Assembly (NCBI GenBank): GCA_963817525.1
Contig: CAWFOU010000001.1
Span: 256,001 to 320,000 of the forward strand
Source of the DNA: an uncultured archaeon
GTDB taxonomy: Archaea; Thermoproteota; Nitrososphaeria; Nitrososphaerales; Gagatemarchaeaceae
Length of the DNA stretch: 64,000 bases
Direction of reading: 5' to 3'
The stretch's first letter is position 1, and each line of letters opens with the position of its first letter. Under the pieces are notes generated by a model. That model saw only the letters and a program-made list of their open reading frames with translations. It was not told the origin of the DNA and did not search any database. A program made the translations under genes and the position numbers. This document shows positions 60,452 through 64,000 of this stretch, piece by piece.

Positions 60452-61819
60452 CACGTCAGGGGAAATCCCAGGTGCTTCAGCCCTGGGATGAATGAAAGCG
60501 AGGCGCTTTTATACGAAAAGAGACATCTCCGGGCAGATGCCTTCCGCGCTGCGCTTCCGTCTCTATCCGTCGCGCAAGCAGGAGGAGAGGATGCTGCGCT
60601 CGCTCGCGTCGTGCCGAAGTCTCTGGAACGACGCCCTGGCGCACCGGAGAAGCAGATGGCAGGACAAGCGCATATCAACATCGTACGACCTCCAGCAATG
60701 GATCCTGACCGAGGAGCGGCACCTGGATCCCGAGCTCGGAACTCTCTACTCTCAAGTTGGTCAGGATGTCCTCCATCGCCTCGACAGGGCGTTCAAAGGC
60801 TTCTTCAATCACCAATCAGGATATCCGAAGTTTAAGAAGTTCTCGACTAGTGGCTCGTTCACGTACCCGCAGGCGTACAACGGGTCGGTCAAGCCCGACG
60901 TTCGAAGAAGCCGCTTGTACGTCTCGAAGATCGGCAACATCCCGGCTGTCTTCCATCGTCAGCTTCCCAAGGCCTCTAGGATGAAGACGTGCACGCTGAC
61001 CAGAGAGCCAGACGGCAAGTGGTTCGCGTCGATGGTCTTCGAGGAGGTCGTCCCGCTGCAGGATCTGTCGGGACAGGTTACCGTGATTCCAAGCAAGCCG
61101 GTCGGGGTGGACCTTGGCCTCCTCTCGCTCATCGTCACCTCCGACGGCGAGGGCGTCGAGCATCCGCGCTTCCTCCGCAAGTCAGAGAAGCGGCTGAAGC
61201 GCCTCCAGCGCGTCTTCTCCCACAAGAAGAAGGGCTCTAAGAACAGGTCCAAGGCACGACAGCGCGTCGCGTCCCAGCACGCGAAGGTCGGACGCCAGCG
61301 CCTCGACTTCAACCACAAGCTCTCTTCGAATCTCGTCAAACGGCACGATTTCATCGCGTTCGAGGACCTTCGCATAGAGAACATGGTCAAGAACCACAGG
61401 CTGGCCAAATCGATCCAGGACGCGGCTTGGGGTCAGCTCATTACATTGACAGAGTACAAGACCCTGAAGGTCGGCTCACGCATCGTCAAGGTCCCTCCAG
61501 CCTATACGACCCAGGAGTGCATGTACTGCGGCGCGCTCAACAAGATCTCTCTCGACGTACGAGAGTTCGGTTGCATCGGCTGCGGTCGCCACCTATATCG
61601 CGACCACAACGCCGCAAACGTGGTGCTGAAGCGCGGCCTGGCCATCGCGGGCCTTGTCGTCGCATCGAAGGTAGGGCAGGTCATGCCCGATCTCAAGCCT
61701 ATGGAGACCAGGCCCCTGTTCCTTCAGACAACTGGGAGAGCAAGCAAGGTCAATGAAGCAGGAACTATACGCCCGCAAGGGCTGGAAGCCCACGGCCTCC
61801 AGCCGTGAGAGGATGTCAC
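60452..61819 (+). mobile_element. IS200/IS605-family, tnpB-only (IS1341-like) insertion sequence
   Basis: TTTAA immediately to the left (60447-60451); left-end hairpin TCCCAGG-TGCTTCAGC-CCTGGGA; right end GAAGCCCACGGCCTCCAGCCGTGAGAGGATGTCAC ending in TCAC; no tnpA. Confidence 0.85.
60537..61808 (+). CDS. tnpB: TnpB RNA-guided endonuclease
   Basis: LRFRLYP N-terminus, GYPKFK, RuvC-I VGVDLG, RuvC-II FEDL, CMYCG/CIGCG zinc finger and RuvC-III RDHNAA. Confidence 0.96.
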   Translation: MPSALRFRLYPSRKQEERMLRSLASCRSLWNDALAHRRSRWQDKRISTSYDLQQWILTEERHLDPELGTLYSQVGQDVLHRLDRAFKGFFNHQSGYPKFKKFSTSGSFTYPQAYNGSVKPDVRRSRLYVSKIGNIPAVFHRQLPKASRMKTCTLTREPDGKWFASMVFEEVVPLQDLSGQVTVIPSKPVGVDLGLLSLIVTSDGEGVEHPRFLRKSEKRLKRLQRVFSHKKKGSKNRSKARQRVASQHAKVGRQRLDFNHKLSSNLVKRHDFIAFEDLRIENMVKNHRLAKSIQDAAWGQLITLTEYKTLKVGSRIVKVPPAYTTQECMYCGALNKISLDVREFGCIGCGRHLYRDHNAANVVLKRGLAIAGLVVASKVGQVMPDLKPMETRPLFLQTTGRASKVNEAGTIRPQGLEAHGLQP

Positions 61820-61846
61820 GCGGAGTCGGAGGGGTTCGAGTCTAAC

Positions 61847-62395
61847 TTGGCCTCACCTCGCACGCGGCTGTGGCTGGTCACCGGCCCCCCCGGGATAGGC
61901 AAGTCCACGCTCGTCTCCAAGGTGGTCTTCGCGGTCAGGTCGAAGGGGCTCGGGGTCGGGGGCTGCCTCACGCGGGAGGTGCGGAAGGGCCGGGAGCGGA
62001 CGGGCTTCCGGCTGATCGACCTGCTCAGCGGGAACGAGGCGGAGCTGGCCTCGGTCGGCGGGCTAGGCCCGCGGGTGGGCAAATACCGAGTCAACATCAC
62101 GAACCTCTCCTCGCTGGGGGCGGGGTCCCTCCTCCGCGCCGCGGAGGTAGCGGACCTCATTGTCATCGACGAGGTAGGCCCGATGGAGCTCACGAGCCCC
62201 GAGTTCAGGAAGGGGGTGAAGGCCTGCCTCGCTTCCGGCAAGCCGATGCTCGTCGTTCTGCACGAGAGCATGAAGGACCCGCTCATGACGGAGATCACCG
62301 AGCAGCCGGACAAGGAGTTCGTCGAGCTTACCCTCCACAACAGGGAGGGGGTCTCCCAGCAGCTCCCCGAGCAGATTGCCTTAAGCCTCGGATAG
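61847..62395 (+). CDS. Nucleoside-triphosphatase (NTPase_1/THEP1 family)
   Basis: VTGPPGIGKST, GGCLTREVR..RTGF, VGKYRV and IVIDEVGPME. Confidence 0.93.
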   Translation: MASPRTRLWLVTGPPGIGKSTLVSKVVFAVRSKGLGVGGCLTREVRKGRERTGFRLIDLLSGNEAELASVGGLGPRVGKYRVNITNLSSLGAGSLLRAAEVADLIVIDEVGPMELTSPEFRKGVKACLASGKPMLVVLHESMKDPLMTEITEQPDKEFVELTLHNREGVSQQLPEQIALSLG

Positions 62396-62516
62396 TAGGA
62401 GCCTAGCAGGCATGCGTCTCGGCGGCGTGGCCTTGTCTATTGTGACTTCCCGCACCTGACATCTGCGCTGAAATAGGTCTCGCCATTCTCCATTTACGAA
62501 AACCTCAGGCCAAGAC

Positions 62517-63516
62517 TTGGCGCAGACAGTAGGACTCTGGCTGGCAGAAGGTGACCACAAAACGCTCCGCGAGGTTACATTCACCAACAATGACCCGAAA
62601 CTCATTTCCTTTTTTCACCTTGTTCTTTGGAAATACTTCAGGCCACGCAACCCCGCGAGAATCTATGTGTATTGGCCGTCTGAGGACATCACTTTCCAAC
62701 GGTCTGTCCCGGGTGCGGTCTACAGGATTTATGTTGACCGTCGGGCCAACACGCCCTATTACATTTACAGAGTGTCTGGAGTTGAATTGGTGAGAGTCTG
62801 GAGAAGGACGGAGCGGGCGATATGCGCTGAACCGAGAAATTATCGAGGAATACTTCAGGGTTTTTTCGCCGGCGAGGGCAACGTCAAGGACATCGTCGGC
62901 CACCATTCCAGAGTCCTCAGAATCGCTCAAGGCAAGAGACTCGGTCTTCTTGAGCGGATTTTGCGCTCTTTCGATGTGAGCTTCACTTACGAACCTTCGG
63001 AAAGAGCCTATGTAATTTCGGGACGAGAGAATCTAGAGAAGTTATGGAGAATCAGCATAAGCGAACTGCATTCGAAGAAACAGGCAAGATTTACAGCCAT
63101 GATGTCCTCGTACCAACAGTATCATTACGGGCGTCAGTTTCTCGGTCCCCGAATTTCAGAGATTCTCTCTTCCCCGCTGACCACTACCGAAGTTGCCGAC
63201 AGAGTCGAGGTAAATCAAGGGTTAGTCAGGTCCTGACCGCGCTCAACCGGAATGGTGAGGTCGAAATGTTCAAGGTAAGAAGCTCGTGCTACTGGATTAG
63301 GAGCGACCAACGATGCGTGATAATTTCCAACGAGAAGTCCAAAATCCTCAAATTGCTTTCTTCCCCTCTCCGAACATGCGAGATCGCCCGGCGTGTTGCT
63401 CGGACGGAAAAGTCGGTTTCGAAAAGACTAGCAGAGTTGATAGGCTCGGACTGGTTGAGAGAGCAAACTCTAATTGGCGAGCAATCGAGGTATCAAAGCG
63501 GGTGATTGTCAAATAA
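62517..63516 (+). pseudogene. Free-standing double-motif LAGLIDADG endonuclease-like protein with two C-terminal wHTH domains; two frameshifts (near 63206 and 63439)
   Basis: Motifs LAQTVGLWLAEG and ILQGFFAGEG, FTNNDPKLI. Joined frames give PLTTTEVADRV..KSRVSQVLTAL and PLRTCEIARRVARTEKSVSKRLAEL.RLGLVER. Markedly more AT-rich than the flanks. Confidence 0.75.
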
Positions 63517-64000
63517 AGCTCATCGCTGGGGTCGATGAGGCCGGGAGAGAGCGCGACGAAAAGTCGCCTCCCCGCGAGGTTGTGTACTCGGCCCCCTCGC
63601 GGTCGCCGGCGTCTCGATAGAATCGTCGAGATTGGAGGAGCTCGCCGAGCTCGGCGTCAAGGACTCGAAGATGCTCTCGCCAGAGCAGCGGGAGGCGATG
63701 TACCCCGAGATCCTGAGGATCTGCGACCGCGTGGAGGTCTCTCGCATCCCGCCGAAGATGATAGACCGCTACGTCAGCAGGGGGAAGAAGTACAGGCGCC
63801 TCAACTATCTCGAGACCATCCACATGGCGAAGGTAATCGACGCGCTGGGGGTCGACGAGGTCTTCGTGGACGCCCCGGACGTCAACCCGGTGAGGTTCAA
63901 GGCGGAGCTTGAGGAGCTGCTTTCGTGCAGGCCGAGGATAGTCGCCGAGCACAAGGCGGACGTGAACTACGCCGTCGTCTCCGCCGCGTCGATCGTCGCG
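63513..64000 (+). CDS. rnhB: Ribonuclease HII, interrupted by a 29-nt intron and 3'-truncated by the window edge
   Basis: Spliced product (M)KLIAGVDEAGRGCVLGPLAVAGV...GVKDSKML...LNYLE...VFVDAPD...EHKADVNYAVVSAASIVA contains the RNase HII motifs. Confidence 0.93.
63548..63576 (+). other. Putative bulge-helix-bulge mini-intron in rnhB
   Basis: 4-bp helix CGGG(63542-45)/CCCG(63571-74) with 3-nt bulges AGA(63546-48) and CGA(63575-77) and an internal hairpin. Removal restores both the frame and DEAGRG. Confidence 0.85.

Follow-up and report, generated by a model that had tools for sequence, protein, structure and literature searches.

A decayed LAGLIDADG endonuclease gene and a predicted mini-intron as a candidate two-part homing element at the 5' end of archaeal rnhB

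Near the end of a 64,000-nucleotide (nt) stretch of DNA from an uncultured archaeon of the Gagatemarchaeaceae (contig CAWFOU010000001.1, positions 256,001 to 320,000; this whole stretch is called the window and its source genome G000), the gene rnhB, encoding RNase HII, is interrupted by a GC-poor segment. This segment comprises a broken LAGLIDADG endonuclease gene, a replacement of the rnhB 5' end and, within the codons of the catalytic DEAGRG motif, an insert of 29 nt which resembles an intron of the tRNA type, i.e. of the bulge-helix-bulge (BHB) kind. We consider it likely that the segment is a decayed two-part selfish element whose intact form homes collaboratively. A wider reading, in which a pan-archaeal two-part homing element employs a free-standing nuclease cutting DNA that encodes GRG, the substrate-recognition motif of RNase HII, travels together with the BHB intron and the rnhB start, spreads by conversion and finally decays, is one towards which the evidence leans slightly.

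The rnhB gene can be read as KLIAGVDEAGR in frame 0 up to 63547/8 and continues as GCVLGPLAVAGV... in frame 2 from 63578, the insert splitting the codons of DEAGR/G (here and below the slash marks the joint) within the Arg codon. Geometry, restoration of the reading frame and covariation agree and support the 29-nt insert as a BHB-type intron, predicted from the sequence and with a relaxed motif, which is what the initial annotation had proposed for this gene. In the central helix CGGG at 63542-63545 (the last base of the Ala codon and the Gly codon) pairs with CCCG at 63571-63574. The 5'-strand bulge (63546-63548) is followed by the inner hairpin (63549-63570) and the 3'-strand bulge occupies positions 63575-63577. 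The splicing enzyme cuts after the second base of each bulge. Exon 1 is thus predicted to end at 63547 and exon 2 to begin at 63577, with DEAGRGCVLGPL as the product and the usual spacing of the motif; the same rule also gives a functional product for the AGT bulge of the G010 type. Furthermore, a compensatory change from G-C to A-U was found in the hairpin between G000 and the related genome G009. Other ways of reading the insert were tried and abandoned. A BHB register pairing the intron 5' bases with exon 2 failed to pair, while exon 1 does pair with the intron 3' bases; an intein was ruled out by an insert that is out of frame and contains stops, and a -1 frameshift or translational bypass by an A-rich site that is not conserved among carriers.

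A survey with the family alignment against one genome per species gave 80 loci, belonging by record titles to Nitrososphaerota/Thaumarchaeota, Woese-, Pace-, Aenigmat-, Micr-, Nanohalo-, Iain- and Nanoarchaeota, Altiarchaeota and Thermoplasmata. In 78 of them rnhB was located directly downstream with its start at most 90 nt from the nuclease gene (the other two contigs end too early), and the part of RNase HII following GRG began 23-115 nt past the end of the upstream frame. At the motif, 65 of these 78 loci contained an insert of about 20-70 nt and the remaining 13 an uninterrupted motif of the DEAGRG type. The supposition that intron and nuclease go together holds for the majority of the loci but not for these 13.

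The inserts were subjected to a scan for structure only, blind to coding (4-base-pair (bp) helix, 3-nt bulges, inner helix of at least 3 bp). In 56 of the 65 loci with an insert, and also in the window, exactly one strict candidate restored D-E-A-G-R-G in frame; after shuffling of the intron interiors a motif-restoring candidate was obtained in 97 of 11,200 trials (0.87%). For the window and the 56 loci the covariation score was 0.687. Shuffles gave 0.158, with 0 of 500 reaching the observed score, and slid partners gave no more than 0.141. In the 4-bp helix, the outermost and the innermost pair each involve a third codon position, of Ala or Gly, at which changes are synonymous and which co-varies with the intron bases (one pair: CG 18, AU 12, UA 11, GU 7, GC 3, UG 2; the other: GC 16, UG 15, CG 11, AU 7, UA 2). 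Three intron positions were observed within 3 nt, namely AG/A (49 loci and the window), AGAG/G (four loci) and A/GA (three loci). The 4-bp helix shifts along with the position in the loci concerned, which are L040, L082, L107 and L110 for AGAG/G, 2 nt downstream, and L041, L072 and L093 for A/GA, 1 nt upstream. Most of the 13 carriers without an intron (L052, L066, L076, L077, L079, L080, L081, L086, L089, L091, L101, L105 and L109) show variant codons at the site, i.e. DDSGRG, DEAGKG, DEARRG or CGN in place of AGA for Arg.

The initial annotation described an AT-richer segment between the nucleoside triphosphatase (NTPase) gene and rnhB. Its composition was found as described, with a GC fraction of 0.47-0.55 across about 62500-63500 compared to 0.62-0.70 in the flanking NTPase gene and rnhB. 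As to its location, the description needs correcting: a relic of the native rnhB start to its left places the segment inside rnhB. This relic (ATG CGT CTC GGC GGC GTG G) lies seventeen bases past the stop codon of the NTPase gene, the same gene that adjoins rnhB on the left in relatives, whether or not they carry the element. The uninterrupted rnhB genes of G012, G022, G008 and G018 begin at the same distance with near-identical letters (MLVGGVDEAGRG...), and the starts of the first three of them read ML(V/L)GGVDEAGRG. The relic is decayed (ATG to ACG) in G017 and G009, one codon longer in G019 and was not seen in G010 and G015. It shows that the carriers descend from an uninterrupted rnhB allele into which the element was inserted, with the left junction at codon 6-7 of the native gene. 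A single large intron linking the relic start to DEAGR was ruled out by the altered (G017, G009) or missing (G010, G015) relic ATG.

As judged from the sequence, the element supplies its own replacement of the rnhB 5' end (the codons of KLIAGVDEAGR) together with a start signal. This exon 1 differs from the native alleles at several synonymous sites. Two start codons come into question. A TTG at 63474 is located 20 codons before the Asp codon; four of eight Nitrososphaerota-type loci, like the window, have a start at this distance, and one further locus has ATG there. ATA at 63513, the alternative, lies within an ATAA overlap of stop and start. The TAA at 63514-63516 had been described as overlapping the rnhB start about 30 nt from the intron; the distance proved to be 31 nt, but the overlap depends on which of the two starts is used. 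The ATAA overlap is seen in the Nitrososphaerota-type loci (63510-63516 in the window; L033-L039, L054), most DPANN loci having ATGA, GTGA or TTGA, and in G010 an additional A puts the ATA candidate out of frame. Over its last approximately 125 nt, which include GGTGATTGTCAAATAA and a 15-mer at 63465-63479, the element's DNA is more conserved than coding would require. Each of the genus's seven carriers has this 15-mer, AAACTCTAATTGGCG, without any change, even at synonymous sites; it contains TAA and TTG in the rnhB frame, might act as a start site, promoter or RNA element, and is near-invariant in the metagenome contigs, of which L134 differs at two positions. Together with a Shine-Dalgarno-like GGTGAT (63501-63506) it lies within the last piece of the endonuclease gene.

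Starting with the TTG at 62517, frame 0 forms an open reading frame (ORF) of 239 codons with the motifs GLWLAEG and GFFAGEG. These correspond to the two LAGLIDADG-like motifs with acidic residues (..LAEG and ..AGEG) noticed beforehand, and their Glu-Gly is invariant in the aligned family members. The gene is then interrupted twice. At the first frameshift a metagenome contig of run X1 is identical to the window across the break, a match of limited weight as this run may be the source sample. At the second, a relative of about 91% identity in run X9 has an additional G behind 63440, and intact homologues read ...AELSRLGLVE... at this site. A frame-corrected protein, as envisaged in the initial annotation, does require correction, but with two breaks (63210-63211 and 63440-63441) the copy in the window is probably a pseudogene, inactive and immobile at present, although errors in the assembly might also account for the breaks. 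Upstream of the nuclease start, CATCTGCGCTGAAATAGG (62461-62478) is conserved in G000, G017 and G009; its counterpart is GATGCTGA(A/T)ATA in G010 and G015 and, more loosely, GATGCTAAAATA in G019. This is possibly a TATA-like promoter of the nuclease gene.

The Pfam model LAGLIDADG_3 matches the window copy with an E-value of 5.9e-4 and 20.5 bits, which is under the cut-off of 22.5; 18 of 34 family members are matched by this model and 21 of 34 by TrmB. Comparison of the nuclease to PDB sequences using phmmer gave no meaningful match. An AlphaFold model of the 239-residue core reached a pLDDT (predicted local distance difference test) of 93.2 and a pTM (predicted template modelling score) of 0.81. 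The best PDB matches of this model found by Foldseek were E-DreI and I-DmoI (E-value 2e-5, TM score normalised to the target 0.55-0.63), followed by I-Tsp061I, PI-PfuI, the bI3 maturase and WhiA (PDB 3hyi). The similarity of the modelled fold to I-DmoI and E-DreI establishes the LAGLIDADG identity of the sub-threshold copy and thereby the naming of the gene as a LAGLIDADG endonuclease gene. In the protein database 397 homologues were detected at E-values up to 1e-3, mostly of 331-347 amino acids. E11/G12 and E120/G121, the ends of both motifs, are invariant in an alignment of 35 sequences, as is the Glu-Gly in an alignment of 34. From the model, the motifs and the domain matches, the protein is a single-chain LAGLIDADG nuclease scaffold with the pseudo-dimeric alpha-beta-beta-alpha-beta-beta-alpha fold, which has kept catalytic-type residues and carries two C-terminal winged helices.

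Thirty loci were obtained from 40 relatives, with the junction readable in 27. Both the nuclease gene (or its wreck) and the insert were present in seven of these 27, neither of them in the other 20, so the co-occurrence that had been put forward as a check is seen. All carriers belong to one genus, in which seven of the 18 readable genomes have the element and 11 have an empty site; none of the nine readable loci from the order's remaining genera carries it. Carriers and empty sites are intermixed: the site is empty in G012, whose RNase HII is 88% identical to that of G000, and G017 (89%) carries a wreck. G000, G009, G019, G010 and G015 have a full-length nuclease gene with frame breaks in addition to the insert, and in G017 and G020 the nuclease gene is largely deleted with the insert kept. 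A metagenome scan for an intron-specific 22-mer returned 24 stretches, nine with rnhB and 15 with unrelated genes sharing the 22-mer. The nuclease gene was present in the rnhB contigs L116, L119, L124 and L129, a wreck of the G017 type in L132 and L133, and only the last 150-190 nt of the element with the intron were left in L128, L135 and L134, the first two of which still show a relic ATG CTT CTC. Throughout this decay series the last approximately 150 nt of the element and the intron were kept. The intron thus persists next to no more than a wreck of the nuclease gene in G017, G020, L128, L134 and L135. In the runs mapped on 62300-64000 no metagenome DNA contig joined across an empty-site junction. 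In a homing cycle, an element invades and subsequently decays. The patchy and decaying pattern found here is what would be expected of a homing element which leaves behind what the host gene needs.

The source genome contains two separate tRNA_int_endo genes as well as RtcB. The two genes fit the two-subunit type of splicing endonuclease, which according to the relevant passage of PMC5829648 cleaves non-canonical introns. One RNA run was among the 18 runs listed (share 0.04). Its sole contig on 62300-64000 covers 63611-63782, off the intron junction, and is neutral with respect to splicing. In the RtcB gene (G000:C1:1102130-1104943), Pfam model positions 1-50 and 49-426 are about 1.4 kilobases apart within one frame of 996 codons without stops. 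This interruption looks like an intein by its sequence.

Co-conversion tracts, which the initial annotation suggested looking for in the flanks, were hinted at by other carriers of the genus but were not visible in exon 2 of G000. The tree of the 5' 400 alignment columns of exon 2 unites the carriers G019 and G020 with G010 and G015 (support 92/91). In the last 227 columns G010 and G015 group with the non-carriers G001, G003 and G007 (100/99), as they do by NTPase identity, and a clade of carriers is rejected there (approximately unbiased (AU) test, p 3.5e-5). In G019 (locus L008) and G020 (L009) rnhB has a lower GC fraction (0.47-0.58) and a far greater divergence from close relatives over roughly its first 400 nt than over roughly its last 200 nt, which suggests that rnhB is a mosaic gene in these two genomes.

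From these data we propose the following course of events. One part of the element would be a free-standing, single-chain LAGLIDADG endonuclease with two C-terminal winged helices, encoded immediately upstream of rnhB, the 3' end of its gene doubling as the translation start and first codons of rnhB. The other part would be a tRNA-type (BHB) mini-intron without an ORF in the Arg codon of DEAGRG. The splicing endonuclease (EndA) would cleave the pre-mRNA, with RtcB ligating the pieces. An intact nuclease may cut intron-less rnhB at or near the intron site, with the intron and the synonymous changes shielding the carrier allele, and repair of the break would copy both parts into the empty allele. 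Gene conversion may carry the element from host to host, both inside an archaeal phylum and from one phylum to another, before it decays and leaves 'orphan' mRNA introns. In the present genome the intron and the 3' tail of the element would be retained while the nuclease gene erodes because the single-copy rnhB needs them. Cutting at the GRG codons would fit the clustered intron positions and the altered codons of the 13 intron-less carriers as well as the relic junction at codon 6-7.

Several observations weigh against this proposal. Along exon 2 of G000 the sliding identity to carriers and non-carriers is alike, and no foreign tract was detected by this comparison. For the 5' partition the AU test did not reject a species-like tree (p 0.296), and the groups for these tests were named after the trees had been seen. 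No joint was found in any of the four runs mapped on 62300-64000, where RNA covered 63611-63782 only. Outside the second bulge the helix consists, in 50 of 57 rows, of one C-G pair. With only 1 bp it makes the motif a relaxed, HBh'-like one and not the canonical hBHBh'. Strict geometry failed in nine of the 65 inserts, the inspected ones being near misses with a helix mismatch or a short inner stem. Pairing of 96% in the covariation rows is a circular value because the rows were picked for pairing; this touches neither the shuffle test nor the diversity of pairs observed. The 13 intron-less carriers have an apparently intact nuclease gene. Furthermore, outside the genus 58 of the 78 loci have a nuclease frame that is free of interruptions and contains both motifs (four more have a long frame with a variant motif; the remaining sixteen are short, cut by contig ends or were not parsed by the script), and such an uninterrupted ORF, which is translationally coupled to rnhB, would also fit a host function.

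The latter point leads to an explanation in which the LAGLIDADG-winged-helix protein is a domesticated host factor, e.g. a WhiA-like regulator or expression partner of rnhB, next to an old and unrelated intron. The stop/start overlap with rnhB in most loci, the persistence of the open frame across phyla, and the two winged-helix domains together with WhiA and the bI3 maturase among the fold matches would all be in line with this. A host factor would not be expected, however, to be patchy within one genus or to be repeatedly broken or deleted next to an intact rnhB; both catalytic E-G pairs are invariant, the relic start shows that the insertion was secondary, and the segment is GC-poor relative to the host. 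On balance we regard a host factor as improbable. It might also be that the protein is a true homing nuclease with another target, such as the extreme 5' end of rnhB at the relic junction, and that the intron is a co-converted passenger without protective effect. The left junction at codon 6-7 and the intact nuclease gene of the intron-less carriers could be explained in this way, and the synonymous differences of the element's exon 1 could suffice for protection. This explanation appears distinctly unlikely, in view of an intron that accompanies the nuclease in 65 of 78 loci, of three intron positions within 3 nt at one Arg codon, which suggest a constraint there, and of intron-less carriers that mostly have altered site codons (DDSGRG, DEAGKG, CGN for Arg).

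Finally, the 29 nt might stay in the RNA, leaving rnhB dead or read by frameshifting or bypassing. The RNA contig misses the junction and RNAfold of 63525-63605 (81 nt) alone gave a z-score of -0.65, no better than shuffles, and both would be compatible with an unspliced insert. However, exon 2 has stayed free of stops across 204 codons in each of the genus's seven carriers, and it is open in the wider set as well. RNase HII was detected in 391 of 401 genomes of the class by an RNase_HII search (a tally that takes in five genomes flagged as unpublished, G169, G267, G319, G361 and G399), and a genome-wide search found rnhB as a single copy in the source genome. In addition, the slippery A-rich stretch is not conserved and the covariation matches an RNA helix. 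We therefore consider retention of the insert in the RNA very improbable, and the two-part homing element remains our preferred explanation.

The features of the locus are compiled in Table 1. The Pfam family RNase_HII matches rnhB with an E-value of 9.7e-18 for the part inside the window and 5.3e-41 genome-wide, the match being above the curated cut-off (141.2 bits, model positions 8-198). The NTPase gene is directly preceded by a TnpB-like ORF (60492-61808, plus strand). This ORF has OrfB_IS605, Cas12f1-like TNB and HTH_OrfB_IS605 domains, and its 3' end overlaps the NTPase gene's first start candidate.

Table 1. Coordinates of the features at the rnhB locus (window positions).
Feature	Position	Strand	Remarks
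NTPase gene, left host flank	61805..62395	+	Pfam NTPase_1, E 5.3e-50
Relic of native rnhB start (ATG, RLGGV codons, G)	62412..62430	+	19 nt; matches uninterrupted relatives
Inserted element as a whole (endonuclease gene, substitute 5' end of rnhB, predicted intron)	62431..63576	+	GC-poor; block absent in 20 of 27 related loci
Endonuclease gene piece 1, two-domain LAGLIDADG core	62517..63209	+	frame 0; motifs GLWLAEG 62529-62552 and GFFAGEG 62859-62879
Frameshift 1, one base lost from Gly codon	63210..63211	+	relative to G009 and intact homologue P0002
Endonuclease gene piece 2, first winged helix and start of second	63212..63439	+	frame 2; weak TrmB/DUF7343/HTH_5 matches
Frameshift 2, one base lost	63440..63441	+	frame 2 to frame 1
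Endonuclease gene piece 3	63442..63516	+	frame 1 to TAA 63514-63516; tail present in every decayed copy
rnhB exon 1 from element (...KLIAGVDEAGR, ends with AG of Arg codon)	63474..63547	+	start TTG 63474 or ATA 63513
BHB-like (HBh') motif, predicted	63542..63577	+	central helix, two 3-nt bulges, inner hairpin
Mini-intron, 29 nt, predicted	63548..63576	+	excision would give GGG AG/A GGT TGT = DEAGRGCVLGPL in frame
rnhB exon 2	63577..64000	+	continues beyond window end; 204 codons in all

The closest parallel is found in the cyanophage S-PM2, where F-CphI and the psbA group I intron constitute a case of collaborative homing (Zeng, Bonocora and Shub 2009, as presented in PMC6083498). According to the passage of PMC6083498 concerned, the intron blocks self-cleavage and the nuclease provides the intron with mobility. 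As in S-PM2, a free-standing endonuclease gene adjoins a conserved gene with an intron lacking an ORF. As far as that passage describes the phage system, the differences are an archaeal chromosome instead of a phage, a protein-spliced BHB intron of 20-52 nt instead of a ribozyme intron, LAGLIDADG with winged helices instead of an Endo VII-like nuclease, and an element which in addition substitutes a 5' end and start codon of its own for those of the target gene; cleavage and protection in the archaeal case are assumed by analogy. A further parallel is intron-less or trans homing in phages. In phage T4 (mobE/I-TevIII), a free-standing nuclease gene between or next to conserved genes similarly mobilises neighbouring DNA through co-conversion, as outlined in the pertinent section of PMC2790892, whereas an HNH family nuclease, a phage and a group I intron with a defunct internal ORF are involved there.

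Nuclease fold, type of splicing and archaeal hosts are shared with the archaeal rRNA BHB introns encoding LAGLIDADG enzymes such as I-DmoI and I-Tsp061I. In these systems the ORF lies inside a long intron of an rRNA gene. In contrast, the rnhB element has its ORF upstream of a protein gene and outside the intron, which amounts to a minimal hairpin. Similar to the family described here, the transcription factor WhiA has a LAGLIDADG scaffold fused to a C-terminal DNA-binding helix-turn-helix. WhiA is not known to retain the catalytic acidic residues. It is bacterial and universal in its clade, whereas the rnhB-linked family is sporadic and keeps the acidic residues.

Among protein-coding genes, an intron in the cbf5 pre-mRNA of Crenarchaeota was reportedly found by Watanabe in 2002. 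Like the rnhB insert, it is of the BHB type, interrupts a protein-coding gene of archaea and goes along with hetero-oligomeric splicing endonucleases, as far as the cbf5 pre-mRNA intron is treated in the relevant part of Yokobori 2009 (PMC2738675). It differs by the gene, by the linked nuclease of rnhB and by the far wider spread of the latter, which by record titles includes Nitrososphaerota, DPANN groups, Thermoplasmata and Altiarchaeota. A paper from 2020 (PMC7714728) names cbf5, in the passage on this subject, as the only reported BHB intron of a coding region besides its own case in a 5' untranslated region, and the reference list of a 2025 paper contains only cbf5 work on pre-mRNA splicing. 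In agreement with the initial annotation, which knew of no such case in archaea, no description of an archaeal rnhB intron or of the adjoining nuclease gene was found in searches of full-text literature (subscription journals and supplements lay outside their scope). By analogy, the element family would be a widespread, apparently undescribed archaeal counterpart of phage collaborative homing.

If the insert is spliced, rnhB would join cbf5 as the second family of protein-coding genes in archaea to have a BHB intron and be by far the most widespread such case, with at least 65 species representatives in several phyla. Gene callers will truncate or mis-start rnhB in carriers or fuse it with the upstream ORF, and one aligned database protein does run on into ...CGIDEAGNE. 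The nuclease family would amount to a natural collection of meganucleases, with a highly conserved coding site as their putative target. The linked nuclease would provide a concrete mechanism for the spread of introns in archaeal coding genes and extend collaborative homing to protein-spliced introns and to cellular chromosomes. If the proposal is true, collaborative homing would here be seen for the first time beyond phages, and protein-spliced introns would have a route of entry into archaeal protein-coding genes.

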